A stretch of DNA of 42,469 nt from Candidatus Woesearchaeota archaeon (GCA_017610275.1 JAFCCI010000005.1:1-42469), one strand, 5' to 3'. Shown: positions 9,477 through 30,000, counted from the first letter of the stretch. Program-made: numbers and translations. Notes: generated by a model from the letters alone, not told the origin.

Positions 9477-10439
9477 ATGGAAAACACAATCTGGACTGAA
9501 AAATACAGGCCAAAGGAATTCTCTGATATAAAAGGTCAGAAAGAAATAGTCAAAAGAGTAAAGGCATTTGTTAAGCAAAAAAATATGCCTCATCTATTGT
9601 TTTCCGGGCCAGCGGGAACAGGCAAGACAAGCCTGGCTTTGGTAATATCAAAAAAACTGTTTGGCGACAGCTGGCATGAGAATATTCTTGAATTAAATGC
9701 CTCAGATGAAAGAGGGATTGATGTTGTAAGAAACAAGGTAAAGGATTTTGCAAGGACAAGGGCAATTGGCAATGTGCCGTTTAAGATAATTTACCTTGAT
9801 GAGTCAGATGCCCTGACAAAAGAAGCACAGCAGGCATTGAGAAGAACTATGGAGAATTATACAAGAACATGCCGCTTTATTCTCAGCTGCAACTACAGCA
9901 GCAAAATTATAGAGCCAATACAATCAAGGTGTGCTATATTCAGGTTTAAGTTTTTGAGCAAGAAAGAGATAATAGAACTGATTGAAAAAGTTGCAAAAGC
10001 AGAATCATTAAAAATAGATGATAAGACAAAAGAAGTTTTGTATGAAGTCAGCAATGGGGACTGCAGGAGGATGGAAAATATTTTGCAAAGTTGTGCAGCA
10101 TTATCCAGCAATATAACAGAAGATTTAATCTATTCAATAGCATCTATTGCAAGGCCAAAAGAAGTAGGTGAAGTGTTAAACCTTGCCTTAAAAAATAAAT
10201 TTAAGGATGCAAGGAACAAATTATTGGATGTTATGCTTGAGTATGGGTTGTCTGGCCTTGACATAATAAAACAAATTCAAAAGGAAATACTAAATTTAAC
10301 TATTGAACCAAGGAAAAAGATGTTCTTAATAGATAAATGTGGTGAGATAGAATTCAGGATGGTTGAAGGCTCTGACGAATTTTTACAGCTTGAAGCACTG
10401 TTAAGCCAGGTTACATTAACAGGAATAAAAAAAAATTAA
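9477..10439 (+). CDS. rfcS: Replication factor C small subunit
   Basis: 320 aa. 'WTEKYRP', Walker A 'GPAGTGKTS', 'LDESDALT' (DEAD-like), 'SRC' motif 'IEPIQSRCAIFRF'. Confidence 0.93.
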   Translation: MENTIWTEKYRPKEFSDIKGQKEIVKRVKAFVKQKNMPHLLFSGPAGTGKTSLALVISKKLFGDSWHENILELNASDERGIDVVRNKVKDFARTRAIGNVPFKIIYLDESDALTKEAQQALRRTMENYTRTCRFILSCNYSSKIIEPIQSRCAIFRFKFLSKKEIIELIEKVAKAESLKIDDKTKEVLYEVSNGDCRRMENILQSCAALSSNITEDLIYSIASIARPKEVGEVLNLALKNKFKDARNKLLDVMLEYGLSGLDIIKQIQKEILNLTIEPRKKMFLIDKCGEIEFRMVEGSDEFLQLEALLSQVTLTGIKKN

Positions 10440-11359
10440 ACAGAATGTTTTACCAGAACCTGTGTTGATATGTCTTCTTTATAATCATATTCTAATTTTA
10501 TATTGACTGGTTTTTCAAAATCAGTGTTTGTTTCTGTTTCCTGAGTGCAGGTTATCGTACGTTTTCCGCTATATAAAGTTATATAGCCACTTGTAGCGTC
10601 ACCATCTAAACCAACACAGTTTAAGCCGCTCATTCCTGTATCAACGCTCACAAAAATCCTGTTTTCATTTGTCCTTGTTTCCTCGCAGTTAGAACCCTTT
10701 TTGTATATTCCCCCATTTCCCTTAGGCTCTATTGTAAACTGAAAGTTAAACTTATTCTTTCCTTTAGGAGTTTCTTTAAAGGTTGTAACCTGTACTGGAC
10801 CGCCTGAGTTAAAAACAGCTTTCTCCTCATTAATTTTGCAAATATCTCCTTCTTTATCAATCTGACCTTTTTTTATGCAAAGCATTGAGTTTACATCTGT
10901 TGCATAATTATAACAGACATCGGCCCTTATTGTATAGGGAGTGTTTCCAGTTAAGCTTTCACGGTGATTTAATCCAGAAAATACTACATAAGTTGTTGTT
11001 CCTTCTATTTTGTTTCCTTCTGAATCCTTATAAGTTCCTTCTAAATCCTCATCAGAGTGTTTAACAAAATCAGAATCTGATAATCCAAATTCCCTTGGGT
11101 CAATTCCACTAAGACTTACCTCCACCTTATCCTTGCTTACACTTTGTTCACCATCATTCTTTAGCTTGACAACAACTTCAAAATCAAAGTCCCCCCCATC
11201 ATAGACCTCTGCTGGAGGTGCACCATCATCATAACTTATCAAAAGGCCTGTTGTTCCACCAATAAATGGGCTTTCCTTAGAAGGAGTAATTTTTTCTCCG
11301 CATCCAGATACAAAAATCAATAAACTCAATATTAATATTATATTGACATAATTTTTCAT
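10436..11359 (-). CDS. Secreted lipoprotein, paralog C of a three-member tandem family (unknown function)
   Basis: 307 aa. Signal peptide plus lipobox 'FVSG|C'. Shares 'G..G.L......APP.EVYD', 'CYNY.T.....CI', 'GGPVQVT' and 'NIKLEYDY' blocks with the next two genes. Confidence 0.6.
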   Translation of the reverse strand: MKNYVNIILILSLLIFVSGCGEKITPSKESPFIGGTTGLLISYDDGAPPAEVYDGGDFDFEVVVKLKNDGEQSVSKDKVEVSLSGIDPREFGLSDSDFVKHSDEDLEGTYKDSEGNKIEGTTTYVVFSGLNHRESLTGNTPYTIRADVCYNYATDVNSMLCIKKGQIDKEGDICKINEEKAVFNSGGPVQVTTFKETPKGKNKFNFQFTIEPKGNGGIYKKGSNCEETRTNENRIFVSVDTGMSGLNCVGLDGDATSGYITLYSGKRTITCTQETETNTDFEKPVNIKLEYDYKEDISTQVLVKHSV

Positions 11360-11414
11360 TTTTCAAGCCTCCAGTTTTTAATACATTATTTGATTATATA
11401 AATTTTTCTGTTAA

Positions 11415-12365
11415 TTAGGGTGTGTTTAATATTTCAACACCCTTTTGTATTGATGAAGTGTAACCATACTCTAACTTAACTTGTAGTGGTGTAGTATATG
11501 CTGATTTGCTCATTGCTGGTTTTGGAATAGTGCATATAACACTTCCAGCCCCATTTATTAACCTGATTGGATTATTTGGCCTGCAACTAAGACTATAGCC
11601 AGATACCCTACCACTTACATAAACCTTATCCATGTTTGTATAATCCAATGAATATGGGCAGTCAATATTAAGCCTGTTTTTGTCAATAACCTTACCACTG
11701 CCTACATTTTTGATATATACCTTAAATTGTATTTTGTTTGAAAGCACAGTTTCTTCTATTTTTGTTACAGCAACAGGAGCTCCCTGTCCGCCTGATAATG
11801 AGTAACTTTGGGGGATGGTGCAAACCTTTGTCTTTTGCTTTGTTGAATAAGGCTCTGGATCAATGCATACTGTCTGTGGAGCAAGAGTTTCATAATTATA
11901 GCAGGATGTAACAAGGAAGTTTGCATTATAGCTATCAGTTTTCCTGCTGTCAAAATTTATTATATTGCCCCTAAATGAAACCACATCATAGCCTCCCTCT
12001 GGGTTGTAAATGTTTTTTCCTTCAACCTTTGGAAGTGATATCTGTTTTGGCATGCCCACTACAATAGTATTGTCAAAGCCGCTCAAATAAAGAGTTCCAA
12101 CCCCTTTTGCATTTGGATTGATTACATTAATTGCCCAACCAGTAAGAGAATTTGGTTGTGGATATGCTCCTTTGTTTCTTATTTCTACAACAAGATCAAT
12201 TGGCATGTTGTCATACATCTTAGCTGGAGGCATATCTGTCATGAAATTCATAACAATCCCCTGAGTTCCTTTTCTATAGTCAACACCAGTTTCTCCTGTT
12301 TTTGGAGTGCATCCAAAACTAAAGAATAAAAGAAATATAATAACTATTAATATAATCTTTCTCAT
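11415..12365 (-). CDS. Secreted lipoprotein, paralog B of the tandem family
   Basis: 316 aa. Lipobox 'FSFG|C'. Blocks 'GTQGIVMNFMTDMPPAKMYD', 'SCYNYETLAPQTVCID', 'GQGAPVAVTKIEE', 'YTTPLQVKLEYGYTSSI'. Confidence 0.6.
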   Translation of the reverse strand: MRKIILIVIIFLLFFSFGCTPKTGETGVDYRKGTQGIVMNFMTDMPPAKMYDNMPIDLVVEIRNKGAYPQPNSLTGWAINVINPNAKGVGTLYLSGFDNTIVVGMPKQISLPKVEGKNIYNPEGGYDVVSFRGNIINFDSRKTDSYNANFLVTSCYNYETLAPQTVCIDPEPYSTKQKTKVCTIPQSYSLSGGQGAPVAVTKIEETVLSNKIQFKVYIKNVGSGKVIDKNRLNIDCPYSLDYTNMDKVYVSGRVSGYSLSCRPNNPIRLINGAGSVICTIPKPAMSKSAYTTPLQVKLEYGYTSSIQKGVEILNTP

Positions 12366-12412
12366 TTTATTATATAATCCCTAGATTTCTATTTAAAACT
12401 TTCTATTGGAAA

Positions 12413-13345
12413 CTATTTTTTTATTGTAATTTTTTTTGATATAGAGTAGGTATAGCCATAGTTTAGCTCAATTGTCAATGGGGTAGTATAGGTTGCTCTT
12501 TCCTTTGGCACACCTTTCTCAAGAATACATCTTACAACATCATCACCATATTTCAGCTTTAATGGTATTGGCTTGCATTCAAGCTCTTCATTTGAAAGCA
12601 TGACCTTTATATCCACTATATTTAATTCCTTATAATTTAATGGGTCTGAAGAGCATATATCAGATATTTTATCTTTGTCAATAACTTCCCCATTACCAAC
12701 ATTTTTTATATGGATTTTAAATGCTGGTTTTATTAAATTATCATCATCTACTGGAAGCATTTCACTCTCTACCTTTGTTATTGAAACAGGTGCTCCCTGA
12801 GGAGCAAGAGTTATATCCTTGACCCTGCATACTTTTTGCATCTTTTTTAGGTCATAAACATCTGTATCTATGCAGGTTGTAATATCTTTTTTTGTTTGGT
12901 ATTGGTAGCATACATTTGCTAATATTGTGGATTCATGCTTCTCACTCTGCCCGCCTATTTTCTTTGTTTTTGCTTTTATTATTTTTACTAACTGGTCTCC
13001 GGTTGGAAGAGAAATAGATTTTCCCTTTAAGTTAAACCTAATAGATTCATCATTTTGGTTCATTAATTCCATGTAAGCCTCCTCAACTGTAAAAGAAATA
13101 AATCCATTCTTAATATCAGATGCTCCAACATTCTCTAATATAACCCCTATCTGAAATGGATAATCTTTATATATTTCGTTGGGAGGTGCATTGTTTAAAA
13201 ATTCCATTAAGATACCCTGCTTTCCTGTTCTGAAGTCATCCTGCGTTGTTGGATTTACAAAAGGGTTTGAAATACATCCTGATATAAATAAAACAAGAAT
13301 AATCATAATTAATAAAATAATTCCAGCATTTCTGTTTTGTTTCAT
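12413..13345 (-). CDS. Secreted lipoprotein, paralog A of the tandem family
   Basis: 310 aa. Lipobox 'FISG|C'. Blocks 'GKQGILMEFLNNAPPNEIYKD', 'VCYQYQTKKDITTCID', 'PQGAPVSITKVES', 'YTTPLTIELNYGYTYSI'. Confidence 0.6.
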   Translation of the reverse strand: MKQNRNAGIILLIMIILVLFISGCISNPFVNPTTQDDFRTGKQGILMEFLNNAPPNEIYKDYPFQIGVILENVGASDIKNGFISFTVEEAYMELMNQNDESIRFNLKGKSISLPTGDQLVKIIKAKTKKIGGQSEKHESTILANVCYQYQTKKDITTCIDTDVYDLKKMQKVCRVKDITLAPQGAPVSITKVESEMLPVDDDNLIKPAFKIHIKNVGNGEVIDKDKISDICSSDPLNYKELNIVDIKVMLSNEELECKPIPLKLKYGDDVVRCILEKGVPKERATYTTPLTIELNYGYTYSISKKITIKK

Positions 13346-13378
13346 CTTTTAGTTTTATAATCTTTAGTTTTAGAGTTT

Positions 13379-15799
13379 TTATGCAAATTTTTCTATGTGT
13401 CCCATAACATTTTCTACATAGCTAGTATCTGCATTTTTGTCGCATCCAAGACCATTGTAACCTCTTATCGCCATTTTCACACAATTCCCATCATATTTAA
13501 GATATTTATTTATATACTCATCATTAAAACAATTCTTTCTGACACTACTTTCAAATATTGTTGTTCCATCATTTTTCTTTTTAATATTTCCTTCACTATC
13601 ACAAAAAGTGTTATACTTGTTTTTAAATATCCTGACCCCGCATTCAATATTTGTATTTATATCTTTTAATTCTTCTTTAGTTTTACTACAAAGGCTGCAC
13701 CAGTTGTTTTTAGTTTGTATTTGCATTACCCCAATGCATCCAGTTTCCTTATTTTCTACTACATTTCCTTCACCATCTATATGTTTTAAACCCTCATTTT
13801 CGGTCTCAGCAATTCCTAATATAAGTTTTTCAGGATATCCATATTCTTTAGCAGCCCCTCTTATTTTAAGTTCAACTTCACTGTCATCATAATCCTTCCA
13901 TTCCTCCTTTTTGAGAAAACCCATCATACATTTATCATCATACCATTGGCATTCAATATTATAATCTCCAAAATTACAAATGTCTTTTTCACAATAGTCT
14001 TCAGCAAAGTATATCTTACAATAGTCTTCACTTGGCAGGTCCTGAATAGTTATATAATGTGGGCATTCCTTGCATAAATCATAGGAAACTTCATCACCAC
14101 TTTTCTCGAAAGCCGAATAACAGTCTAAATTGCAAGGATTTGTATCACACCATTCTTGGTTACAAAAGCCAAGCTTATCATAATAATTTCCATCATAGTC
14201 ACCACATTTTAATATATTTTCACATATTTCTTTTATTTCTGATTGACTTTTTAATTCCTCAATTTTATTTTCTTCAGTCATTGCCTCTCCCGGGCTTATG
14301 TATTCTTTTACTTCTTCAATCTCAACAGGTGTTGACTTTTCAAGCTCATAAATATAGTTAACAGTAACCCTAAAATATCTTGTTGTTATTGGCTCATTAC
14401 CAAGCAAACTCTTTGGGTCAGCAGGATTTAACCTGCATTTAATAGAATAGTAATTACTTATATTTTCTGTTCTTTTGTCAGGGACAAGGCTATACACATT
14501 ATATCCATCATCATTTTTTTCTTTGAATTCAAACTCATGGTCACAGTTTGTTAGCTCTAGGCTGTCATGAACCTGAATCTCTAAGTTTGTTACTTTTTTG
14601 ATAATACCCTCCCAATTATTTTCTATGGTTATTCCAAAGAAAAAAGGGTTATTCTCTTGATCACTGTAAACCCCTATTGGCAGCGGCTCAGCTGTTTTCA
14701 TGCCTATTCCTATAGGTCCATTTGTGTATATTGCTATTGGGTTTATATGGCTTATTCCATAATGCTGGAATACATCAATTTCCTCTCTTTTAAAAGCCCT
14801 TAACCTTTCCTTATCCATGAAATATGTTTTTAGATAAGCCATTGTTTCAAAATTAAACTCTGCATTAAATATTACCTCTTTCTTGCCAGGATTAAGTTTG
14901 TCAAATACACAGTCAAGAGTTTCTTCTTCCTCTGTTGCTATATTAAACTCATTCTGAGGAGTTATATTACCATTTATTTTTTTGTCCCCTTCTTTTGCAT
15001 AACATGAAACATTTATGTTAATTTCTTTATCCCCTAATGTTTTTGCTTTTAGGGTAGCCCAAACAATTATTTTTTCTCCTTCAAAGAATTTTGAATCAGA
15101 TGCTTCCAAACCCTCAAGATAAACACCCACTGGCTCATGCTCATAATCATCAACTCTGCCTGTATAATAATCTCCTGTAGCTGTTTGTATAAGGCTATTA
15201 TAAACATTTTTCCAGGTTTTTCCAATATTTTTTATGACACTATTAAATCCATAGCTTAAGTCCCTCATGGTATTTGAGATTGTTTGCTGCACATTAATTC
15301 CTGTTTCAATATCCCCTACTCTTAAATCGTTTATAAAACCATTAATAAGGGCTGGAAAAACAAGAAATACCACTAATAATACTATGCCCCACCTGCATAT
15401 AGTAATAAACCAATTTTGTCCCATTGCAAAACAAAGGTATAATACCCAAGCTGGAAAAAATATAATTGCTGTCTGGAATGCCTGTGAACCTCCTAAAAAA
15501 GGGATTATCCCTCCTAAATAAGGAGCAAATATTGCAATTGATGAGAGGATAATGGGAACTTTAATGTTGGCAACATTAGCAACCCCTGTATTTTCTTGGT
15601 CATTAAATAGGGTAAGCCATGCAGCAAATGTTAATATTAAATAAGCAAATATTCTAAAACTAGTATTTCTAAAGTCTGAAAAAACATCAAGGAGATGAAT
15701 AACCAAACTAATAATAATAAAAAGGGTTATAGAAGGATTAGCAGTGAGCCCTCTATTCATATTCCTTAAAAACCCCTTCCACATATCTCTAGCTGCCAT
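13379..15799 (-). CDS. Large envelope protein: N-terminal polytopic membrane domain, a copy of the lipoprotein-family module, a Cys-rich region, and a C-terminal lytic-transglycosylase (SLT/GH23)-like domain
   Basis: 806 aa. About 5 TM helices lie in residues ~25-165. The centre ('VGVYLEG...','GPIGIGMKT','FFFGITIENNWEG','RYFRVTVNYIYELEKS') is collinear with the lipoprotein paralogs. About 20 Cys lie in 'CENILKCGDYD...CQWYDDKC'. The C-terminus 'LILGIAETEN...GCIGVMQIQ...NIECGVRIF...AIRGYNGLG' resembles the SLT E-S/T ... GLMQ ... AYNxG motifs. Confidence 0.6.
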   Translation of the reverse strand: MAARDMWKGFLRNMNRGLTANPSITLFIIISLVIHLLDVFSDFRNTSFRIFAYLILTFAAWLTLFNDQENTGVANVANIKVPIILSSIAIFAPYLGGIIPFLGGSQAFQTAIIFFPAWVLYLCFAMGQNWFITICRWGIVLLVVFLVFPALINGFINDLRVGDIETGINVQQTISNTMRDLSYGFNSVIKNIGKTWKNVYNSLIQTATGDYYTGRVDDYEHEPVGVYLEGLEASDSKFFEGEKIIVWATLKAKTLGDKEININVSCYAKEGDKKINGNITPQNEFNIATEEEETLDCVFDKLNPGKKEVIFNAEFNFETMAYLKTYFMDKERLRAFKREEIDVFQHYGISHINPIAIYTNGPIGIGMKTAEPLPIGVYSDQENNPFFFGITIENNWEGIIKKVTNLEIQVHDSLELTNCDHEFEFKEKNDDGYNVYSLVPDKRTENISNYYSIKCRLNPADPKSLLGNEPITTRYFRVTVNYIYELEKSTPVEIEEVKEYISPGEAMTEENKIEELKSQSEIKEICENILKCGDYDGNYYDKLGFCNQEWCDTNPCNLDCYSAFEKSGDEVSYDLCKECPHYITIQDLPSEDYCKIYFAEDYCEKDICNFGDYNIECQWYDDKCMMGFLKKEEWKDYDDSEVELKIRGAAKEYGYPEKLILGIAETENEGLKHIDGEGNVVENKETGCIGVMQIQTKNNWCSLCSKTKEELKDINTNIECGVRIFKNKYNTFCDSEGNIKKKNDGTTIFESSVRKNCFNDEYINKYLKYDGNCVKMAIRGYNGLGCDKNADTSYVENVMGHIEKFA

Positions 15800-15827
15800 A
15801 AATCCCTCTTTTTAGAAAAATAAAAGA

Positions 15828-17024
15828 TTATTTTTCAAGTTCTATTTTTAACTCAACAATATCAAGCATTGACAATGGTTCTATTTTTATGAAGTTGTTG
15901 CCTTCTTTTACATAATTATCTATGTTCTTGTAATATTTTGCTTCCTCTGTGTCAATAGAAATCATCCTGTTGTTTATATTAAGGTTCATTTCCTTGTCTT
16001 TTTTGTCATCCACAAACTCAAGAGTTAGCTTAGTATCATATTCATCGCCCTTAATCTTATCATATGTTGATTCGTTAATTGGAAAATAATATGTTGGGTA
16101 GGTTAGCTCTTTAAGATCAGTTGTTATTTTTATTTGCTCAATGCGATAAGAGCCCTTGTCTGTTTTAAAAACAATATTATTATCACCTTTATGTAAAAAT
16201 GTTGCTGAGAAAAGATACATATTGATTGTTTTGCAGTCAGGCACCCCAGAAAAGACCTCTCGATAGTTAATTAATACATCCAGTTTTCCAGCATCGTCCT
16301 GTTCGCAATCAGGCCAAAACCTGAGTTTTGCTCTCTCTAAATTTAACTTTTCATTCTCACTTACAAAGAATATATTCTTGCTTTCCTGCCTGCTTATATC
16401 CGCAACATCACCAACTATCCTAATGTCATCAAGGCTGTAAACATTTGTTGACCAGAATTTAATTCCTGTTCCAGAAACACTAAATTCCAGTATATTATCC
16501 TCTTCAAAATAATTTTTTTTAAGTTTTATTGGCTTTGGATTTGATGTTGTTATCTCGCTCTCAAATATATTAATATCATTAAGTTTTATGGTCAATATTC
16601 CCGTATGCTTTTTTGCTGTAAATGATAATAAAATATTTTCTGTATTTTTTAAGTCTAATATTTTAAAAGGAATTTCCTTTTTTACTTCATCAAATAATCC
16701 ATGCCTTATAATAAATGGATTAATTGTATCTAATTCTTGTGCATTTATAGTTTTATATAATTTAAATGCAGATATATCGTGCTCATACTCCTTCTCTTTC
16801 AGGTAATCAATCCTTCCAGGATACTCAAGCATTAAAATATTTTCTTCATCTTCAGCACTAACGCCACCTTCATCTTCATCTTCAATAGTTTCATTTTCCC
16901 CTAATAATTCTGCCCTTTCATCTGGCGGCAGAAATATAATATATAATATAATTAATCCAACCATAAGGGCTATAAATCCTGTTGCACTAGCAGCATTAGT
17001 ACCTTGAGCTTTTTTATTATTCAT
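15828..17024 (-). CDS. N-terminally membrane-anchored extracytoplasmic protein (unknown family), first gene of the 17024-10436 module
   Basis: 398 aa. One N-terminal TM ('GFIALMVGLIILYIIFL'), an acidic stretch 'EDEDEGGVSAEDEEN', then a beta-rich region. A 28-nt gap separates it from the next gene. Confidence 0.5.
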   Translation of the reverse strand: MNNKKAQGTNAASATGFIALMVGLIILYIIFLPPDERAELLGENETIEDEDEGGVSAEDEENILMLEYPGRIDYLKEKEYEHDISAFKLYKTINAQELDTINPFIIRHGLFDEVKKEIPFKILDLKNTENILLSFTAKKHTGILTIKLNDINIFESEITTSNPKPIKLKKNYFEEDNILEFSVSGTGIKFWSTNVYSLDDIRIVGDVADISRQESKNIFFVSENEKLNLERAKLRFWPDCEQDDAGKLDVLINYREVFSGVPDCKTINMYLFSATFLHKGDNNIVFKTDKGSYRIEQIKITTDLKELTYPTYYFPINESTYDKIKGDEYDTKLTLEFVDDKKDKEMNLNINNRMISIDTEEAKYYKNIDNYVKEGNNFIKIEPLSMLDIVELKIELEK

Positions 17025-17084
17025 AGATGACCACCTGTCCTAAATAGATAACTTAATATATATAAGTTTTCCTATTTTAAAGGT

Positions 17085-18057
17085 ATGAAACAAATACACT
17101 TTGATTTGAAAAAAGGAGAGCTAAAGCTAAAAGTTGAAAATATGGATGACCTTTGGTGTTTAAGTCATGTAATCCATTTTCATTGAGATAGGTGTTGAGA
17201 GTGTTGAATTTCATGAATATTCCTCTGTTTTAAGGGTTTCTGGGATTATAACACAGGGACCAGAAGATATAACAAAGGGTTCTTACCACACATTTAATCT
17301 AGAATCTGGTTCTATAATCACAATAATAAAAAAACAATGGTTAAGCTTTCAAATTGAAAAAATAAAACAGGCATCAGTTGAAACCAAAAAAATACTAATC
17401 TGTGTTCTTGACAGGGAGGATGTATGCTTTGGGCTTTTAAAAAGACAGGGTTTTAGTCTATTATCTGAGATTAAAGGGGATGTTGAGAAAAAAGCAGATG
17501 TAAAAGTAAAAACAGGAAATTTCTATGCAGAGGTTGTAAACAAGCTTTATAATTATGTTAAAAGATATAAAATTGAAAACATAATACTTGCAAGCCCTGC
17601 ATTCTGGAAAGAAGATTTAATGAAAAACATAAAGGATGAGGAAGTTAAGAAAAAAATCACCCTGGCAACATGCTCCTGCTCTGGAAAAGAGGCAATTGAT
17701 GAAGTTCTGAAAAGGCCTGAAGTAAAAAATGTTTTGAGCCAGCAGAGGCTTGCAAAAGAGCTGAAACTAGTTGAATCATTGTTAGAGGAAATCTCAAAAA
17801 ACAACCTTGCTGTCTATGGCCTGAAGGAAACAGAAAAAGCTGTTAATGCAGGGGCTGTTGAAAAGCTTTTAGTTACAGATGGACTCATACAAAAAACAAG
17901 ATTAAGCAAAAATTATGAAAAAATAGACCAGATGATGAAGAACACAGAGAGCATGAAAGGCAGTGTTAATATAATCGGCTCAGATCATGACGGCGGCAAG
18001 AAGTTAGATGGATTAGGTGGTGTTGGGGCCATATTGAGGTATAAGTTGAGTTATTAG
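17085..18057 (+). pseudogene. pelA: Pelota (Dom34 homolog), disrupted by a frameshift and an apparent ~30-aa internal deletion in the N-terminal domain
   Basis: Frame A runs from ATG 17085: 'MKQIHFDLKKGELKLKVENMDDLWCLSHVIHFH' then TGA at 17184-17186. Frame +1 is open from 17173: 'IFIEIGVESVEFHEYSSVLRVSGIITQGPEDITKGSYHTFNLE...PAFWKEDL...' and continues into the track ORF 17620-18057 ('CSGKEAIDEVL','LAVYGLKETEKAVNAGAVEKLLV'). Frame +1 has no start codon before 17620. Confidence 0.75.
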
Positions 18058-19097: not shown

Positions 19098-20285
19098 TTA
19101 ATTTCCTTTAACAACCCTCAGCGTCTCCCTGGCGATTTGGAGTTCTTCGTTGGTAGGAATGACCATGGCCACTACTTTTGAGTCTTTGGCCGTTATGATT
19201 GTTTCATTGTTTTCATTCTTTTTCTTGTCAATTCTTAGGCCAATGTATTCAAACTGTTTCAGTATTCTTTCCCTTAAATAATATGCATTCTCCCCAATGC
19301 CTGCTGTGAAAACAATTGCATCAACACCATTTAAACTAGCAATATAAGAACCAATATATTTTGTAATCCTATAAGCAAGAACATCAAGAGCAAGATGTGC
19401 TCTTTTGTTTCCTTTTTTCTCATTATTCCACAAAACCCTTACATCAGGGCTTATTCCGGATATTCCCAATAACCCTGATTTTTTGTTTAATATATTATCC
19501 ATTTCCTTAACAGAAAGTTTCTCTTTTTTCATAAGAAAGAAAATTATAGCAGGATCAATATCACCACAGCGAGTTCCCATAACAACTCCCTCCAATGGAG
19601 TAAAGCCCATTGAGGTATCAATGCTTTTCCCATTCATAACTGCAGCAATGCTTGAGCCATTACCAAGATGGCAGGTTATTATTTTTAATTTATTATAATC
19701 TTTTTTTAAGATTTCAGCTGCTTTTTTTGAAACATAATAGTGTGATGTTCCATGAAAGCCATAGCGCCTTATACCATACTTTTTATAATATTTATATGGA
19801 ATCCCATAAATAAATGCTTTTTCAGGAATACTACTATGAAAGCAAGTGTCAAAAACAGCAACCTGCTTTACACTTGGCAAGAGTTCTTTGCAAACCCTTA
19901 TTCCAATAAGATTTGCAGGATTATGCAAGGGGGCAAGTTCACTTAATTCTTTAATCTTTTTCATAACTTTATCATTAATCAAAACAGTTTTTTTAAACTC
20001 TTCACCACCATGAACTGCCCTATGGCCTATGGCCTTTATCTCACTAAGCAAACTTATAATCCTATTATCCAAAATTATGCCAAGAACATTCTTTAATGCT
20101 ACCCTATGGTTTTTAATTTTTTTTCTTATTTTCTTACTGTTGCCTTCTATTTCATACTTAATAAAAGAATTATTTAAACCAATGCCATCAGCAATTCCCT
20201 TAATCAAAACATGTTCTTTTTCTTTAATCTCAAAAAGCTGGAACTTCAAAGAACTTGAGCCCGAATTTAATACCAAAATTTTCAT
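19098..20285 (-). CDS. ackA: Acetate kinase
   Basis: 395 aa. 'MKILVLNSGSSSLKFQLF', 'GHRAVHGG', 'FDTCFH', 'YGFHGTSH', 'CHLGNGSS', 'DTSMGFTPLEG..MGTR.GD.DP'. Confidence 0.93.
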   Translation of the reverse strand: MKILVLNSGSSSLKFQLFEIKEKEHVLIKGIADGIGLNNSFIKYEIEGNSKKIRKKIKNHRVALKNVLGIILDNRIISLLSEIKAIGHRAVHGGEEFKKTVLINDKVMKKIKELSELAPLHNPANLIGIRVCKELLPSVKQVAVFDTCFHSSIPEKAFIYGIPYKYYKKYGIRRYGFHGTSHYYVSKKAAEILKKDYNKLKIITCHLGNGSSIAAVMNGKSIDTSMGFTPLEGVVMGTRCGDIDPAIIFFLMKKEKLSVKEMDNILNKKSGLLGISGISPDVRVLWNNEKKGNKRAHLALDVLAYRITKYIGSYIASLNGVDAIVFTAGIGENAYYLRERILKQFEYIGLRIDKKKNENNETIITAKDSKVVAMVIPTNEELQIARETLRVVKGN

Positions 20286-20289
20286 TATA

Positions 20290-21270
20290 TCACTTCTTTA
20301 TATTCTGAGCCTGCACAACAGTTATTGCAGTCAAGTCAACAATATCCTGAACAGAGCAACCCCTTGATAAATCATTCATTGGCTTTGCAAGGCCTTGGAG
20401 TATTGGGCCAATTGCCCTTACATTCCCCAATCTTTCAACAAGCTTGTATGATATATTGCCAGAGTTAAGGCTCGGAAACACAAGCACATTAATTTTTTCC
20501 CGGCAGTTAATACTAGGGCACTTTTTTTCACAAACATCTTCTATGAGTGCAGCATCTGCCTGGATCTCACCAACAACATTTAATCCAGATTTTTTGGCAA
20601 TTTTTACTGCCTTTCTTACTCTATCTACATCTTCTCCTTTTCCAGAACCAACTGTTGAATATGAGAGCATTCCTACCCTTGCTTTTTTATTAAAAAGATT
20701 TTCAAATGTTTCTATTGAAAGCCCTGCTATTTCAGCAAGATCTTCTGAGCTCGGGTCTGGGATAACAGCACAGTCAGCAAAGAGCAGAACTTTTTCATCT
20801 TTTGCCATAAGCATAGCACCAGACACTTTTTTAACATTCTTTTTTGTTTTTATTATCTGAAAAGCTGCCCTTACTGCTTCCGATGTTGAATGAGATGCCC
20901 CTCCTATTAAGCCATTAGCATCATTGCAATAAAGCATCATAGCCCCAAAGTAGAGCTCATTTTTCAGCATTTTTTTTGCATCATCTAAACTAACACCCTT
21001 ATCATTCCTTAATTCAAAAAGCTTTTTTGCATACAAATTAAATTTTTCTGATTTAAGATTATTAATAATCTCAACACCCCTTAGATTTAGCCCAAGATCA
21101 TCAATTTTCTTTAATACCTTTTTCACATCACCTAAAAGAGTAACCCTTGCAATTCCTTTCTTTAAAATGATTTCAGATGCCTTTAAAATCCTCTCATCAA
21201 ATGCCTCTGAAAAAACAATCTTTTTGGGATTTTTCCTTGCTTTTTTTATTATATTATCCAAAACTTCCAT
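20290..21270 (-). CDS. pta: Phosphate acetyltransferase (short, PTA_PTB-domain-only form)
   Basis: 326 aa. 'KKIVFSEAFDERILKA', 'NELYFGAMML', 'DGLIGGASHSTSEAVRAA', 'ADCAV.P.P', 'FPSLNSGNISYKL'. It lies 4 nt upstream of ackA on the same strand. Confidence 0.9.
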   Translation of the reverse strand: MEVLDNIIKKARKNPKKIVFSEAFDERILKASEIILKKGIARVTLLGDVKKVLKKIDDLGLNLRGVEIINNLKSEKFNLYAKKLFELRNDKGVSLDDAKKMLKNELYFGAMMLYCNDANGLIGGASHSTSEAVRAAFQIIKTKKNVKKVSGAMLMAKDEKVLLFADCAVIPDPSSEDLAEIAGLSIETFENLFNKKARVGMLSYSTVGSGKGEDVDRVRKAVKIAKKSGLNVVGEIQADAALIEDVCEKKCPSINCREKINVLVFPSLNSGNISYKLVERLGNVRAIGPILQGLAKPMNDLSRGCSVQDIVDLTAITVVQAQNIKK

Positions 21271-23353: not shown

Positions 23354-24310
23354 CTATGGCAGTGTTCTGTACTTTGTGTTTATCATACCCCATTCAACAA
23401 ACAACAATGCTAAAGCAGTCATCATGAGGCCCATTGAAAGATTTACAGGTATTTTTTTCTGTGAGCTTGCAGATATTTCTTCAAATGCATTGGATAAACT
23501 TTCCTCATTATCAGCCCTGTAATACTTACCATCTGTTTTTTGAGCTATGTCAATGAGGGTTGGCTCATCAAGTTTTGAGAGTAAATCGCCTTTTATGAAT
23601 GTCCCCCCTTCTTCTGTGCCAAGGCCTATAGTGTTAATTGTTACATAATTTTTGTTTGCATATTCAATAGCCGTATCAACAGGCGTTCCAACAGTGCTCT
23701 GCCCGTCTGTCAGCAAAATAATAACCCTTGAGTTTTCCTGGTTTAACAAAATATTTGTAGAGGTTATTATTGCTCCCCCTATATCAGTTCCTCCAACTCT
23801 CTTAATTCTTATGCCGGTAATAACCTCTTCTGTCTCTTTCATGTTATCTGTTAAATCCTGCTCAACAAAACTTGTTCCTGCAAAAGAAACAACACCAATA
23901 TTTGTTTTTGCTTTTAAGCTCTCAACAAACAATGAAGATGCCTTTCTTGCAGCATCAAGCCTATATGGCTTGAAATCATCTGCTAACATAGAGCTTGAGG
24001 CATCTATTGCTATCACAAAATCAAACTCACTGCTTTGGCCACTGTACCAAAGGACAGGTCCGGATATTGAAAATATGAGAAATAATAATACAACAACTCT
24101 TACAATCAACAAAAACAAATTTTTTGATATCCCCCTTGCATTTTTAAGTTCAAGCTTTGTTCCTGTCACTCTTTTGATTGCCTCAAAATTAGCAAATTTT
24201 ACTGCCCTTCTCTTGAGGTAACCTAAAACAAAGAAGTGGGTTATTATTAGCATGGGTATGCTTATTAAAAGCCACAAATAATAAGGATTAGTAAAGTTTA
24301 TTGTTATCAT
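23354..24310 (-). CDS. Membrane-anchored von Willebrand factor A (vWA) protein, BatA-like
   Basis: 318 aa. N-terminal TM helices, MIDAS 'VIAIDASSSM', 'VVSFAG', 'GGTDIG.AI', 'IILLTDGQS', C-terminal TM. Confidence 0.8.
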   Translation of the reverse strand: MITINFTNPYYLWLLISIPMLIITHFFVLGYLKRRAVKFANFEAIKRVTGTKLELKNARGISKNLFLLIVRVVVLLFLIFSISGPVLWYSGQSSEFDFVIAIDASSSMLADDFKPYRLDAARKASSLFVESLKAKTNIGVVSFAGTSFVEQDLTDNMKETEEVITGIRIKRVGGTDIGGAIITSTNILLNQENSRVIILLTDGQSTVGTPVDTAIEYANKNYVTINTIGLGTEEGGTFIKGDLLSKLDEPTLIDIAQKTDGKYYRADNEESLSNAFEEISASSQKKIPVNLSMGLMMTALALLFVEWGMINTKYRTLP

Positions 24311-25194
24311 CTTCTTATTTTATTCCTCATCAAAAAGAAATTTATTACATGATTTAAAAAAGGTTTATCTGTTCTTAATTCTAAAAAATTTGCTCTTGAT
24401 TTTATAAATGTATGTTTTACATATTTTACTTGTTCTTTAACAGCAGCCTCATATTCTTCCTTTATTGTTGCTGTGTCTATTAATACCTCTTTGTCAGAAT
24501 AAGGGTCTGAAATAACTATCTGGCCAACATCTTCAGGCATTTCATAGTCCCTTGGATCCCTGACCATCATCCCAATTATCTCAAATCTTTCAGATGCAGC
24601 ATTTAAGTATTTTTCCCAATCCTCACCAAGACCTATAAAATCAGATACTATCACAACTATTGCACCCCTTTTGAAAGAATTAATCAACTCAGTTATTACT
24701 CTTGCAAAATCAAATTTTCCTTCATAGAGTTTAGGATTAGACAAGGTTTTTAATATCATAAAATACTGCCCATTACCCATAGCAGGATGCAGGAATTTGA
24801 CTATTTTATCATTAAACATAACCAAACCAACTGAATCACCAGCCTGTATAGCTGCAAAGCTCAGTGAGGCAACAAGTTCTGCTGCATACTCATTTTTCAG
24901 CTTGTCAATAGATGCAAAAGACATGCTTGAGCTGACATCAACTAGAAAAATAATATTAACATTTCTTTCCTCAGTAAGCACTTTAATCAGCAAATCCTGT
25001 GACCTTAAGGTTGCTTTCCAGTCAATCAGGTTAGCATCATCACCAGAAATATAACCTCGATAACCCTCAAAATCCAGGCCTTTGCCTTTAAATGAGCTTT
25101 TATAAGAACCAGTTAAGATATCTATAAACCCTCTTTTGGTTGATACCTCTAATTTTTTAATAAGGGGCTTTAAGTTAAGCTTTAATTCTTCCAT
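24307..25194 (-). CDS. DUF58-family protein (vWA-like, MoxR-associated)
   Basis: 295 aa. 'G.DFEGYR.Y..GDD...IDWKAT.R', 'FLVDVSSSM', 'VVIVSDF'. ATGA start/stop overlap with the downstream vWA gene. Confidence 0.8.
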   Translation of the reverse strand: MEELKLNLKPLIKKLEVSTKRGFIDILTGSYKSSFKGKGLDFEGYRGYISGDDANLIDWKATLRSQDLLIKVLTEERNVNIIFLVDVSSSMSFASIDKLKNEYAAELVASLSFAAIQAGDSVGLVMFNDKIVKFLHPAMGNGQYFMILKTLSNPKLYEGKFDFARVITELINSFKRGAIVVIVSDFIGLGEDWEKYLNAASERFEIIGMMVRDPRDYEMPEDVGQIVISDPYSDKEVLIDTATIKEEYEAAVKEQVKYVKHTFIKSRANFLELRTDKPFLNHVINFFLMRNKIRR

Positions 25195-25207
25195 TTTTAA
25201 GCAGGAT

Positions 25208-26194
25208 TTATGGAACAGGAACTCTTGCCAGAATCTCTGAAATCACATCTTCAACCTTAATATTTTCTGATTGTGCTTCATAGTTTAGGATAAGCCTGTG
25301 CCTCAAAACATCATATGTAACCTCTTTAACATCCTGCGGCGTTACAAAGGTCTTGCCATTCATTAATGCCTCTGCTTTTGATGCAATAAACAATCCAATA
25401 GATGCCCTTGGAGAAGCACCATAATCTATATAATCTCCTAGCTTAACCTTATAATTATTAGGATTCCGTGTTGCATCAACTATCTGAACAATATATTTTT
25501 CAATCTTTTTATCTAGATAAACTTTTTTTACATCATCCTGCAATCCTAATATTTTTTCAGGAGACATTATAGGTTTTAAAGTGAAATTCTCAAACTTTTT
25601 TGTTGTTATGTTTTTATTAAGAATAGCCTGCTCTTCATCAAGAAGGGGGTATCCTATTTTAATCTTGAACAGGAACCTGTCAATCTGCGCCTCTGGCAAG
25701 GGATAAATACCTACTTGTTCTAATGGATTTTGAGTTGCAAGAATAAAAAAGGGCATTGGCATACTAAATGTTTCTTTTCCAATTGTTGCCTGTTTTTCCT
25801 GCATACATTCCAGCAAAGCGGACTGCACTTTTGGAGGTGCCCTGTTTATTTCATCAGCAAGAATAAAATTGCTGAATATTGGCCCTTTAAGAACATAAAA
25901 CCCTCTTTCCCGTTCATAAGCAGTTATCCCAATTATATCAGTTGGCAAAAGGTCTGGCGTAAACTGAATTCTGCTGAAGTCGCACCCCATAACAGCAGAT
26001 AAAGCCCTTACAATAAGTGTTTTAGCAATCCCGGGAACCCCTTCTACAAGCACATTGCCATTTGCTAATAATGCCCTTAAGAATCCATTAATTACTCTTT
26101 CCTGGCCAACAACTGCATTTGAAACTTCTTTTTTTATTTCACCAATAACTTTTTGGTTTTGAATTACCTTCTCAGCAAAATCTTCTTTATTCAT
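25208..26194 (-). CDS. MoxR-family AAA+ ATPase
   Basis: 328 aa. Walker A 'EGVPGIAKT', 'RIQFTPDLLPTDI.G', Walker B 'ILADEINRAPPKVQSALLE.MQE', 'ATQNP.EQ.G.YPLPEAQ.DRF', 'GASPRA'. Confidence 0.9.
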   Translation of the reverse strand: MNKEDFAEKVIQNQKVIGEIKKEVSNAVVGQERVINGFLRALLANGNVLVEGVPGIAKTLIVRALSAVMGCDFSRIQFTPDLLPTDIIGITAYERERGFYVLKGPIFSNFILADEINRAPPKVQSALLECMQEKQATIGKETFSMPMPFFILATQNPLEQVGIYPLPEAQIDRFLFKIKIGYPLLDEEQAILNKNITTKKFENFTLKPIMSPEKILGLQDDVKKVYLDKKIEKYIVQIVDATRNPNNYKVKLGDYIDYGASPRASIGLFIASKAEALMNGKTFVTPQDVKEVTYDVLRHRLILNYEAQSENIKVEDVISEILARVPVP

Positions 26195-26300: not shown

Positions 26301-27026
26301 ATGTACTTAAGCACTTTCAAAAGGAAAAAAAAGAAACCTAATAGGCTTGAACTGGTAAAAAACAATACCTTTAAAAGAATTTATTCATTTAGAAAACATT
26401 TTTCTAAAAAAAACAGAGAAGACAATTTCATCCAGTTTTTTCATATTGTGAAGCTTTTTTTTGCTGAATTATTTAAGATTAGGTATGAATTTACATTTGA
26501 GGAATTAAATAAGGAACTGGAAAGAAAAAGGATAGATGAAAATCTGAAAGAACGAATTACTTTTTTTTTAAAAAAAGTGTCTGTTGTTGAATATAGTAAT
26601 GAAACCCTGTCTGAGCAGGAACTTAAGAAACTATTAAGTGATTTTTTAAAATTATTTGAAAAACTGACATTTAATGAAGAAAAAGTTAAGGAAACAAGAC
26701 TTTGTAAAATATTAAGGATTCTTAAAGTTAAGAGAATATCAACACACAAAAAAGAGAGGGTGAAAAAACAAAATGCTTTGTTAGTCCTGATGCAGCATAT
26801 ATCACCCAAACTTAAGATAAATCTTGAAAAAAGCAGGCTAGAGCAGATACATAATATGCTTATTAAGGCATTGGATATGCTAAATAACAATGAGATTCAA
26901 AAGAGCAAGCAGTTGTATGTAAAGATTAAAGAAAATTATAATCATCTAAAAATTGAAAATAAAAAAGAAATTTATGATGATATTCTTTTCTTATACAAAG
27001 AACTTGTTCCTAATAACAAGAATTAA
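26301..27026 (+). CDS. Soluble helical protein homologous to the cytoplasmic tail of the 1009-aa surface protein (unknown function)
   Basis: 241 aa, K/E-rich. 'FFAELFKIRYEFTFEELNKELERKRI...ITFFLKKVSVVEYS' aligns with 'FLSDLLKIEYEFTYEEFCKEIEKHKI...ITFFRKISEISYK' of 31218-34247. The C-terminal 'QLYVKIKENYNHL...KKEIYDDILFLYKEL' aligns with 'LAYIRIKELYEEL...KRKIYKKIVWLYNKI'. Confidence 0.6.
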   Translation: MYLSTFKRKKKKPNRLELVKNNTFKRIYSFRKHFSKKNREDNFIQFFHIVKLFFAELFKIRYEFTFEELNKELERKRIDENLKERITFFLKKVSVVEYSNETLSEQELKKLLSDFLKLFEKLTFNEEKVKETRLCKILRILKVKRISTHKKERVKKQNALLVLMQHISPKLKINLEKSRLEQIHNMLIKALDMLNNNEIQKSKQLYVKIKENYNHLKIENKKEIYDDILFLYKELVPNNKN

Positions 27027-30000
27027 TACATTTTCTTATGTTTTCTCTTTGATCCATTATGGGTAATCAAATAAAGCAGTAATATTATGATAAACAATAT
27101 TCCTATGCCTGCTGCAATAAGCCTTGTTTGTTTTTTCTGAGTTTCCTCATAAGTTGGCTCTTCTATTATTGGCTCTTTTGCAGTTATTAGATATCTGCAT
27201 GTATCAACAACTGACTGAATCAATAATTGTGCTCTTTTATAGTCTGATTTTGATATTAATTTTTGTGCATCTACAAGCTGCTCATTAAGTTCCAGGCATT
27301 CAGGATTTTCCTCAAGCAGATCCCTTGTGAATGCTATTTTGGTTTCAAATTCTTTCTGGCTCCATTGGCCAAGTTCTATTGAGCTCATGAAGAATTTAGC
27401 AGAATCATTAAACTCAGGGTCTTTTATGTCTGCAAACACAACAACCTCATATGAGCCCAATGCAGTATAAGATTCTATAATAAGGTTTGTTTTTACAGAT
27501 GTCTTTTTTTCTATTGTTTCAAAATAATCTTTTGTGAATCTTAGCTTAATAACACTGCTGTTGACAGAAGCTGTTAAACTTACTTCTTTTAAAGTTATGT
27601 CTCCATAATTATTTAGTGTTATTGGGGCAATAACTGTGTTATTTTTATACATTGTCATTGTTAAAGGAGTTATAAGATTAAATGAATATGGCTTTTCTAC
27701 CTCCACTTTTTTTGTCTTGATTACTATTGTTGATGATCCGCCACCTCCACTAACAATAATTGTTGGACCTGGTGTTATACCTTCATATTCTACAAATGTT
27801 AAGATTATATCATTACTTCTTGTTGTGTTGTAACTATCATTCATTATGAAATATATTGTTTCTGAACCATACCAATCACTTTTAGGCGTGAGTGCAACTT
27901 TATGCGTATCATTTCCTATTGAAATATCAATATTTGAATTCCCACGTACATTATAGGTTATTGTGTCATCTGTGTCAAAATCATGAAAGTAATCATCAAG
28001 GTCTATCCAATTGACATATATTGTGTTTTCATTTCCTGTGAAATCAGATATAATATAATTTACACTTACATCATGCAATGCTGGTGTTGTAAGGGTGTTT
28101 GTTGTGGATAAATTTGCCAGGTATTGTATATATTGATAATCCCCTGATTCAATTAATGAATCATTAACATAATCAGAACTCCAGCTTGCATTATTTAATC
28201 CAACTTCTGTAAAAGCAGTTTTTGTCTGCAGTGTTATGTTAGCTCCTGCAGGCATTGTTGTGCTAAAATTAATATAAGTTATGTTCATGTTATCCTCAGC
28301 CAGGAGATTTATTACTGAGGATATGAAATTCCCTTGCGAATAATAATTAGTTGAATTCTGATTATCAAGTATTATGTCTCCGCTTTGGGTGGTTATACTT
28401 GTGTTGCTTTTTATTCCAGGGCTGAAATCAGTTTTAGTTGTTTGTGTTACTATTCCAAAGCTTGGCAGCCTATTTGTGTTATTCACACTAACATTCCAGG
28501 TTATGCTGTCTGTTTCATTGGAGTTATCAGAAACTATTACTGTTATGTTACGCTGCCCAGCTGCTGTAAAATCAGGCTCATAAAGCCACGACTGGTTTGA
28601 TGACTGGTTAACAGAATCCAAATACCATGTATATGTCAGACTATCTCCATGAATCAAATCATCATCAGTTGCTGTTACATTAAACTGCAATGATAAGTTT
28701 TCTGCTGTGTTTGGTATTAAGTTAAGAGGGATATAAGATGTTATGTTAGGTGGGCTATTGAGGTTTAGTATTGTAAGGATTATAACTCCCCATGTTACAC
28801 TATTGCTATCATTTACTGAAATATTTATTGAATAATTTCCAACATCATCATTTGTGGGAGTAAAGTTAATAAATCCTGTTAAAGAACTTATATTAAATAA
28901 GGTACTGTTATCGCTGAATGTTAATGGATCATTTTCCTCATCTGTTGCATTAATATCATAAAAAAATAATATATCCTCTGTTGCTGTCTGATTTTCAAGT
29001 GGAGGGTCAAAATAAGGGGGATCATTTATTTCAGTGATATTTAACCAGAATGTTGCTGATGCTGTTCCATTATCCCCATCACTCACATTAATTTTTATGC
29101 TGTAAAGCCCTATCTGGCTCACATTTGGAGTAAAGTTAATAAACCCTGTTGAGGGGTTAATATCAAACAAAGTTGTATTATCGCTGAAGGTTAATGGATC
29201 TCCATCAGGATCAGATGCATTTATTGTTAAGTTGAATTCTAAATCTTCTGTTGCACTCTGGTTACCTATTGGATCAATTACTGGAGCCCTGTTTTGTGTA
29301 ACAGTAAATACTACTATTTCATAATCTATTTTCGGTATGGTAGCATCATCTGTAACAGAAATATTAATTGTGTAAACTCCTGCCTGGCTTTCATTTGGTG
29401 TAAATTCAATAAGCCCTGTTGATGGATTAATCTCAAACAAAGTTGTATTATCACTCAAGGTTAAGGTATCTCCAGTGTCAAGATCTGTTGCATTAACCTT
29501 CAAGCTAAATGTTTTATTTATCTTGATTATTCTATTTCCTATTGGGTCTAAAATAGGGGGGTTATTAATATCTAATATCTCGAGCACAAATGTTGTTGAG
29601 TCTGTTGCACCTTTTTCATCTGTTGCTGTAACAAGAATAGTATGATTTCCTTTGTCTTCATCAAGCGGTGTAAAGCTGAATTTTGCAGCTGTTTCATTAA
29701 TTTTGACAGAAGTTAACATTTTATCATAATTGCTTGAGAATGTAAGGTTATCACCATCCAGGTCAGAACCTGTAACTATCAACTCAAATAAGGTATTTTC
29801 TTCACCTGTCTTGTTAGTTATTGGGTCAATAACCGGAGCTGTATTATTGAGTATTGTAAGATTTAAAGTAGTAGAGGAATTAGCCATTCCATCGCCTACA
29901 GTGATATTTATTATATAATTACCAATATTATCCCTTGTTGGAGTAAAGTTAATAAACCCTGTTGAGTAAGTAATATTAAACAAGCTTGTGTTATCATAAT

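Follow-up and report, generated by a model that had tools for sequence, protein, structure and literature searches.

A conserved five-gene operon of Woesearchaeota-type Nanoarchaeia encodes a putative surface complex with a predicted, exchangeable murein-hydrolase head

Large proteins carrying an SLT domain have been described from Woesearchaeota and Pacearchaeota, with AR20 and Lake A MAGs among the sources (PMC9723730), and were read as acting on bacterial cell walls (PMC8204110, PMC9723730). The "vampiristic", or predatory, interpretation of Lake A Woesearchaeota rests on similar genes (PMC9723730), and such genes were also noted in DPANN archaea of oxygen-deficient zones (PMC10936187). Here, we analyzed a stretch of 42,469 nucleotides (nt) from Candidatus Woesearchaeota archaeon (GCA_017610275.1 JAFCCI010000005.1:1-42469), hereafter called the window, in which an SLT-bearing protein is encoded by the second of five consecutive genes, g1 to g5. 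Compared by description, g2 is very probably one of the published SLT proteins or a close relative, as it comes from the same lineages, is likewise a large extracellular protein with an SLT/GH23 domain and has the same proposed target. The published proteins differ in being reported as single domain-bearing proteins, one family of which, fam00969, is said to reach 3,000 amino acids (aa) (PMC8204110). The literature that we found on them contains no account of an operon, of its locus between the pelota and rfcS genes or of the lipoprotein family encoded next to g2, and it does not describe a prepilin-like g1, the β-sandwich core of g2 and the fold shared with its neighbors, or the swapping of heads.

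A second group of comparable systems consists of lytic transglycosylases and related hydrolases specialized for envelope machines. Enzymes of the VirB1, EtgA, FlgJ/SltF and PrgK/TcpG/CwlT types resemble g2 in joining an N-terminal anchor or scaffold to an interchangeable SLT, GH73 or NlpC/P60 head, a likeness of domain architecture that is general knowledge. They are also alike in local, tethered action rather than bulk lysis, and a profile of the g2 heads matches EtgA, MltC and Slt70. However, the machine-specialized enzymes open the wall of their own producer for a co-encoded machine, whereas the producer of g2 has no murein, and, in contrast to enzymes encoded in the cluster of their machine, g2 is accompanied by no ATPase, channel or filament genes in the operon, in its conserved flanks or elsewhere in the window.

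Judged from its gene content and synteny, the locus is a lineage-wide, chromosomally fixed operon of Woesearchaeota-type Nanoarchaeia, and it probably belongs to the core surface equipment with which these archaea deal with bacteria. A preliminary description of the window had proposed a co-directional, five-gene envelope module with gaps of 28 to 55 nt, flanked by pelota and rfcS, and this layout was confirmed in every part. Five minus-strand open reading frames (ORFs) occupy positions 17024-10436 between pelota and rfcS, and the gaps from g1 to g5 measure, in order, 28, 33, 47 and 55 nt. The genes and the signals around them are as follows.

17025..17084, minus strand: divergent spacer between g1 and pelota, 60 nt, holding TATA-like and Shine-Dalgarno (SD)-like motifs
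~17055-17066: TATA-like TTATATATATT, ~31-42 nt 5′ of the g1 ATG
17031-17036: SD-like AGGTGG, preceding g1
15828..17024, minus strand: g1, 398 aa, from the ORF and an alignment of 50 homologs
15799-13379, minus strand: g2, 806 aa, an ORF comprising anchor, stalk, core, tether and head
12413..13345, minus strand: g3, 310 aa, lipobox FISG/C24, tandem β-sandwich, six conserved Cys; position p1
11415..12365, minus strand: g4, 316 aa, lipobox-like FSFG/C19, tandem β-sandwich; position p2
10436..11359, minus strand: g5, 307 aa, lipobox FVSG/C20, the most divergent paralog; position p3
10427..10435, minus strand: T9 run directly 3′ of the g5 stop codon, inside the 3′ end of rfcS on the opposite strand

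This operon-like layout suggests that g1 to g5 are co-transcribed. The spacer between g1 and pelota is likely the operon promoter, as predicted from its motifs, and further SD-like sequences precede g2 (GAGGG) and g5 (GGAGG). The T9 run is a candidate archaeal oligo-T terminator; inspection of the sequence revealed no comparable T-run after g2, g3 or g4, and a T4AT5 stretch is present after g1.

Far from never being syntenic in related genomes, a result that the preliminary description had named as speaking against its own proposal, the five genes were strongly syntenic. In a species-level survey with one genome per GTDB species, 168 matched stretches encode a relative of g1, and 80 of these loci were fetched. 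Every homolog stems from a metagenome bin that bears the name Woesearchaeota, Nanoarchaeota, Nanoarchaeia or Pacearchaeota. (Many of the public records, among them those of L005, L007, L012 and L015, have the title "uncultured Methanosarcinales archaeon", a label that is probably wrong.) Three distant contigs, whose g4 proteins are 61%, 40% and 38% identical to that of the window, share the order pelota(-), g1, g2, g3, g4, g5, rfcS(-), PRC-barrel, and hidden Markov models (HMMs) recovered the arrangement pelota, g1, g2, three lipoproteins and rfcS in most sufficiently long loci among the 80.

The operon region is chromosomal and not a mobile element, because it lies in housekeeping surroundings of even base composition. 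The window encodes FEN1, a tRNA-intron endonuclease, Hjc, TFIIE-alpha, IF-2B, RNase HII and ackA/pta, its GC content is even at ~30-35%, and the neighbors of the operon include the genes for a PRC-barrel protein and NUDIX in addition to pelota, rfcS, IF-2B and ackA/pta. A mobile-element or viral origin was considered and rejected, as the housekeeping flanks are syntenic across species and no PHROGs matches were obtained.

A reduced form of the locus was found in L015, L017, L042, L049 and L053, in which pelota and g1 are followed by a distant homolog of g2, anchored by only one transmembrane (TM) helix, and by one lipoprotein. These g2 homologs match by BLAST with E values of 1e-4 to 1e-3 in two of the five loci and more weakly in the others, and one of them has an SLT-like end. 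This three-gene form may be the ancestral state that preceded the triplication of the lipoprotein. It lies at ~10000-14300 in each locus, and an adenylate-kinase-like gene stands next to it, in place of rfcS.

The preliminary description had presented the g2 protein as a fusion of about five TM helices, a Cys-rich region and an SLT-like domain, and each of these parts was found. All of the following are on the minus strand.

15326..15799: g2 aa 1-158, membrane anchor (hydropathy; AlphaFold2 helices with a predicted local distance difference test score, pLDDT, of ~80-90)
15128..15325: g2 aa 159-224, predicted helical stalk (AlphaFold2 pLDDT <50 for aa 158-194)
14306..15127: g2 aa 225-498, tandem β-sandwich core (AlphaFold2 pLDDT ~90; Foldseek; conservation)
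13880..14305: g2 aa 499-640, Cys-rich tether (Cys positions; AlphaFold2 pLDDT <50)
13382..13879: g2 aa 641-806, GH23/SLT lytic-transglycosylase head (Pfam SLT, motifs, profile, AlphaFold2 pLDDT ~90)

The N terminus of g2 is positively charged and is followed by about five hydrophobic helices within aa 22-158, so that an N-in/C-out topology is predicted, and the rest of the protein would accordingly face the outside of the cell. Conservation of the TM domain is low (top-residue frequency of 0.40, with no invariant residues), and in a variant clade it is a single TM helix. For these three reasons a role of this domain as a transporter or enzyme was rejected; by the same features, it is best described as an anchor and not an obvious transporter. 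The stalk is poorly conserved as well (top-residue frequency of 0.34) and ends in the conserved motif ATGDYYTGxVD, in which A207, G209, Y212 and V216 are near-invariant. The core is the best-conserved part of g2 (0.57-0.69) and contains four invariant cysteines, C266, C297, C419 and C455. The tether is variable or absent in orthologs (alignment occupancy of 0.61), which range from 640 to 1,250 aa in length; 13 of the 27 cysteines of g2 fall within aa 526-624.

Outside the head, g2 gave no Pfam, NCBIfam or PHROGs match, and PDB searches returned nothing meaningful. Foldseek searches of the g2 model against PDB and BFVD retrieved tandem Ig-like/β-sandwich proteins at E values of ~1e-5 and DUF11-type proteins. 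The matches included complement MG domains, integrin calf/thigh domains, RbmA and Cna, and further transglutaminase barrels, the soluble domain of AglB/STT3 and VPS26/arrestin. The AglB match was rejected as a sign of homology, since it is confined to the β-rich part and g2 has no TM domain like that of the oligosaccharyltransferase.

The "glycan-cleaving head" of the preliminary description proved to be a GH23 domain with intact signature motifs. Pfam SLT (PF01464, gathering cut-off of 21.3 bits) matched full-length g2 with 26.0 bits (E = 7e-6) and its C-terminal part with 28.3 bits (E = 1.4e-6). The candidate catalytic residue is E667 within GIAETE-N; across 52 heads, conservation at this position reaches at least 90%, and the residue aligns with the Glu of the "ES" motif of MltC, the Ser being replaced by Asn in this copy. 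The motifs GLMQ and AYNxG are the established definitions for family-1 lytic transglycosylases, and g2 has them as GVMQI (690-694) and GYNGLG (780-785). A profile of the ortholog heads matched MltC, EtgA and Slt70 with E values of 1.5e-5 to 7e-5 and with the catalytic Glu aligned, and the BFVD matches of the g2 model included LT_GEWL and lytic transglycosylase entries. The head is thus predicted to be likely active as a lytic transglycosylase. In the SLT heads of this archaeal family, additional Cys are conserved in the segment from the catalytic Glu to the GLMQ motif, which suggests stabilization of an extracellular enzyme by disulfides.

One point on which the preliminary description needs correcting is the head, which is no invariable component of the module. 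Among 52 g2 C-terminal regions, cut off after the core, 28 carry SLT, 7 Glucosaminidase (GH73) and 2 Lysozyme_like, and 7 have fn3 spacers. Precomputed Pfam matches on g2 homologs comprise SLT, Amidase_2, NlpC/P60 or none, and one of the syntenic orthologs on the distant contigs carries Glucosaminidase. Even close relatives with 78-86% identity in g1 differ, L006 and L008 carrying SLT and L005 and L007 a weak GH73 match of sub-gathering score. The C-terminal third of g2 occurs in ~61% of alignment rows. From these domain assignments, the head appears as a swappable cassette of SLT, GH73, amidase, NlpC/P60 or none. Since the head varies, the conserved function would reside in the β-sandwich core and its partners.

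The variety of heads narrows down the substrate. Each of the four types of head cleaves a different bond, and by established enzymology these bonds co-occur only in bacterial murein, while pseudomurein lacks N-acetylmuramic acid (MurNAc) and the lactyl-peptide link; Amidase_2 and NlpC/P60 heads need MurNAc-peptide bonds, which are missing in pseudomurein, and this speaks against action on a wall of the archaeon's own. No wall-synthesis genes were found in the window or in its flanks. Because of this shared-polymer argument and the missing wall-synthesis genes, the substrate in vivo is most likely bacterial peptidoglycan.

The three genes downstream of g2 encode paralogs, as had been claimed. 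BLASTP E values are 1.6e-38 for g3 and g4, 1.7e-16 for g4 and g5 and 1e-10 for g3 and g5, the sequence blocks quoted in the preliminary description are the family consensus, and the six Cys after the lipobox are conserved, C167, C182, C236, C261 and C278 being invariant and C155 at least 90% conserved. The lipobox Cys itself is present in all 103 family members used for these statistics, as is G, A or S at -1, and the strict pattern [LVI][ASTVI][GAS]C fits 67 of the 103. Of the three lipoboxes named in the preliminary description, those of g3 (ISGC) and g5 (VSGC) fit strictly, whereas that of g4 (SFGC) is degenerate, deviating at -3 and -2. The AlphaFold2 model of g4, built from a 103-sequence alignment, is all-β with two 24-residue strands (pLDDT of 89.8; predicted template modeling score, pTM, of 0.83).

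Many archaeal lipoproteins are solute-binding proteins. The g3-g5 family differs from these, as it matches no such family and has a tandem β-sandwich. With their signal peptide and a lipobox with an invariant Cys, g3-g5 resemble the lipoproteins that depend on AliA/AliB; AliA, an archaeal lipoprotein lipidation enzyme, has been reported in DPANN, and the predicted lipoproteins of Haloferax volcanii have been functionally classified (PMC12462473). No Pfam, NCBIfam or PHROGs match was obtained for g3-g5, and PDB sequence and profile searches with this family, g2 and the g1 family gave nothing of significance, matches to PapG lectin at E ~1 included. The family is large: clustered at 50% identity, it has 3,344 representatives that reach E ≤ 1e-3.

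Best hits compared across 36 genomes (1260 comparisons per position) fell on the same position in 1217 of 1260 cases for p1, 1252 of 1260 for p2 and 1218 of 1260 for p3. Given this near-perfect positional orthology, the triplication is old and each copy has been kept, which argues for three non-redundant subunits. The middle lipoprotein is enlarged in L020 (822 aa) and L045 (1,028 aa) and measures ~320-370 aa elsewhere.

The preliminary description further held that the same module occurs four times, in g3-g5 and in the center of g2. By direct comparison this was not significant: BLASTP of the g2 center against the lipoproteins gave E = 0.08 and a first hhalign run E = 0.26, and the shared blocks are those pointed out in the preliminary description. 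The lipoprotein HMM gave no significant match to g2 sequences; g2 was mildly enriched among the sub-threshold matches, an enrichment confounded by protein length. An enriched, domain-restricted hhalign run, with 138 lipoproteins without their signal peptides against ~70 g2 cores from related loci, aligned g4 35-316 with g2 224-498 over 240 collinear columns (score of 26.0, P = 0.0079, hhalign probability of 5%). As controls, 40 block-shuffled profiles scored 11.7-21.8 and the reversed profile 17.7 over 29 columns. At the aligned positions, the DSSP assignments of the g2 and g4 AlphaFold2 models agree in 66% of cases with a strand Jaccard index of 0.63, compared with 35-50% and 0.28-0.45 in shifted registers, and the order of secondary-structure elements is the same in both, with two strands of 24-25 residues each in register. 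The fourfold occurrence is therefore plausible; the modest signal suggests that the g2 core and g3-g5 probably share a tandem β-sandwich fold as distant homologs.

The first gene of the operon, g1, seems to encode the most conserved of the five proteins, the best 120 listed homologs all being at least 43% identical. It consists of a short charged leader, a [KR]-K-[AG]/Q-G-G site, a hydrophobic helix of ~20 residues, an acidic linker and an ectodomain of ~330 aa with many invariant positions, including C240 and C264. Among the 50 aligned homologs, the leader has a median length of 4-5 residues, K/R occupies -3 in 48 and -2 in 40, A/G occupies -1 in 49, Q occupies +1 in 46 and G occupies +3 in 33, so that this N terminus is more conserved than is usual for a mere anchor. 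With its leader, the charged residues at -2/-3, G/A at -1, Q at +1 and the hydrophobic helix, g1 conforms to the pattern of class III signal peptides. In EpdA, a substrate of EppA, cleavage takes place at RG/QI and requires Gln at +1 (PMC4187195).

Surface proteins of class III that are not part of filaments, such as the sugar-binding proteins of the Sulfolobus bindosome and substrates of EppA or PibD (PMC4187195, bioRxiv 10.64898/2026.04.22.720090), are comparable to g1, which has a short charged leader, a cleavage site with a small residue before it (-1) and with Q at +1 and G at +3, and a hydrophobic helix followed by a large globular ectodomain. In contrast to these, g1 has no acidic +5 residue, no assembly genes for type IV filaments nearby and no detected binding-protein domain; position +5 is N in 33 and A in 10 of the 50 homologs, and thus not the acidic residue of EppA-type substrates. 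Because of the Asn at +5 and the lack of pilus-assembly genes nearby, we regard the class III (prepilin) identity of g1 as a lead and not as a classification. Searches with the sequence and with the family profile gave no Pfam, NCBIfam, PHROGs or PDB match for g1. A lone 21-column hhalign match between g1 and the lipoprotein family (E = 0.05) was rejected. Thus, the statement of the preliminary description that the module falls in no known family holds for everything except the SLT head, and an SLT-bearing protein of this kind was already in the literature.

Our preferred reading, which we advance tentatively and at somewhat less than an even chance, is that the operon encodes a contact-acting, tethered murein-hydrolase complex on the cell surface. 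In such an arrangement, g1 to g5 would build a membrane-anchored extracellular complex. The helical anchor of g2 would sit in the membrane and carry the core, from which a flexible, disulfide-rich tether would lead to a murein-cleaving enzyme, here of family GH23. The g3-g5 proteins would pack with the g2 core into a hetero-oligomer of fixed stoichiometry on the outer face of the membrane, and g1 would be the fifth subunit, possibly an adhesin or organizer. The tethered head would then cut the glycan strands of a bacterial wall pressed against the cell and might thereby serve in anchoring to bacteria or in feeding on them.

Action on a bacterial wall is suggested because the archaeon itself has no murein, and the placement of the enzyme, held to the membrane through the stalk, the core and the long tether, favors action on an object that the cell touches. 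The conserved core, the three fixed paralogs, the conserved g1 and the three modes of anchoring suggest a hetero-oligomeric platform with an exchangeable enzyme. Both the physical assembly of the five proteins and the dependence on cell contact, which correspond to the "multi-component machine" and the "host-contact apparatus" of the preliminary description, are what we infer from this arrangement.

Several observations weigh against the proposed contact-acting complex. The case for an assembly of g1 to g5 consists of synteny and paralogy, neither g1 nor the TM domain of g2 has a classified fold, and the Foldseek matches are to generic β-sandwiches, a fold that says little about function. About 15 of the 52 g2 orthologs lack a recognizable hydrolase domain, and in at least two of them, L075 and L082, g2 ends directly after the core; therefore, murein cleavage is not a universally conserved function of the module. 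Moreover, we know of no Woesearchaeon that has been shown attached to a bacterium.

Another reading takes the module primarily as a structural scaffold of the envelope. It would form a lattice of S-layer-like or sub-S-layer type, or else a hetero-oligomer of Ig-like subunits that organizes the membrane, and the head would be an optional antibacterial or scavenging accessory. We consider this doubtful but worth serious weight. Such a scaffold would account for a core and partner proteins that are conserved while the head is variable and in some orthologs absent, and for an operon whose place amid housekeeping genes is the same in most of the sufficiently long loci fetched. A pseudo-symmetric lattice would also suit three fixed paralogs, and archaeal surface layers typically contain Ig-like domains that are anchored in the membrane or by a lipid. 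On the other hand, the subunits are small for this purpose, at 300-400 aa, and a five-gene operon led by g1 points to a stoichiometric complex rather than to a bulk wall protein. No similarity to a known S-layer protein was found in the sequence and profile searches of Pfam, NCBIfam and PDB or in the Foldseek search with g2.

The murein-specific heads would also be compatible with a surface hydrolase that scavenges free or detrital peptidoglycan or kills competitors, with no stable attachment to a host. In support of this, archaeal peptidoglycan hydrolases that kill bacteria have been shown in other lineages, and Nanoarchaeota are reported to be rich in homologs of such hydrolases (PMC12352652); Pacearchaeota have been proposed to draw nutrients from the peptidoglycan of dead cells (PMC11537232). 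The enzymes of PMC12352652 are like g2 in that archaeal genes encode bacterial-type hydrolase domains aimed at bacteria. They are reported to kill directly and are presumably released, whereas g2 is tethered by a polytopic membrane domain and belongs to a conserved multi-gene module. For scavenging or killing, a secreted enzyme would serve better than one held in the membrane by five TM helices. This reading also leaves the four conserved partners of g2 unexplained, and no muropeptide transporter was found in or beside the operon. We regard this explanation as unlikely.

Still less probable is that g2 serves as the wall-opening accessory of an envelope-spanning machine, either a type-IV-filament-like one or one for DNA or protein transfer, with g1 as its pilin-like component. 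SLT and GH73 heads are swapped also in flagellar systems of the FlgJ/SltF type, the head profile matches EtgA, a lytic transglycosylase specialized for type III secretion systems, and the N terminus of g1 fits the class III pattern [KR][GA]/Q, as does the RGQI site of an EppA substrate (PMC4187195). Nevertheless, no secretion ATPase, platform protein or prepilin peptidase was found in the operon, in the conserved flanks or in the 42-kb window, the scope of the genome context being this window and the flanks of related loci. In addition, the +5 residue of g1 is N and not acidic, and its globular ectodomain of 330 aa is unlike a major pilin.

Finally, an autolysin that remodels a glycan wall of the archaeon itself would agree with the membrane tethering, as seen in many bacterial autolysins and in lytic transglycosylases of the MltA-E type, and with the core, chromosomal nature of the operon, yet it is highly improbable given the absence of wall-synthesis genes from the window and its flanks, the existence of headless g2 orthologs and the treatment of these lineages as murein-less in the literature (PMC8204110).

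Both genes that border the operon show peculiarities of their own.

9477-10439, plus strand: rfcS, converging on g5
17085-18057, plus strand: pelota, a damaged copy adjoining g1

The stop codons of g5 and rfcS overlap, with 4 nt in common (10436-10439), and the C-terminal lysines of the RFC protein are the opposite-strand coding of the T9 run. In L016 and L033, the rfcS ORFs are 846 aa and 955 aa long, compared with the usual ~320 aa, hinting at an intein or some other insert. In the pelota copy of the window, residues 1-31 of the ortholog correspond to 17085-17177 and residues 60-353 to 17173-18054 in a different frame, whereas residues 32-59 are absent; this amounts to a deletion of ~85 nt with a frameshift and points to a pseudogene or an assembly error.

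Farther away, a bacterial-type acetate kinase/phosphotransacetylase pair and a MoxR-DUF58-VWA (BatA-like) operon are located at 19098-21270 and 23354-26194, both on the minus strand. A second cluster of surface proteins, at 27023-37205 on the minus strand, encodes proteins of 1,395 aa and 1,009 aa with Big_9/cadherin-like Ig repeats. The small proteins next to them in the cluster gave sub-cut-off Pfam matches to PG_0320-like_C and the host-binding domain of WxL-interacting proteins, and the cluster recalls the WxL/Csc cell-surface loci of Gram-positive bacteria.

Few uncultured archaea are as widespread as Woesearchaeota and Pacearchaeota, and to our knowledge all cultivated DPANN archaea attach to archaeal hosts. 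The module described here may provide a molecular handle on the proposed interaction of these archaea with bacteria, being present in many species at a fixed position and predicted to be surface-exposed with a murein-targeting tip. The g1 protein, the g2 core and the three lipoproteins are defined targets for future work, and they include a large unannotated family of 3,344 clusters. The locus further contributes an example of conserved lipobox proteins from outside the haloarchaea, and it is an operon in which three modes of membrane anchoring occur together. A bolder possibility, to which we give a minor but real chance, is that the five proteins form a core contact apparatus of Woesearchaeota and Pacearchaeota that has no characterized counterpart; its interchangeable murein-cutting heads would then indicate that much of this very large, uncultured radiation lives on bacteria and not on archaea. 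If this were true, the lipoprotein trio and the prepilin-like g1 would represent a new class of archaeal cell-cell interaction machine, and the lipoprotein family, with its ~3,300 clusters at 50% identity and no Pfam entry, would be the signature of that machine.

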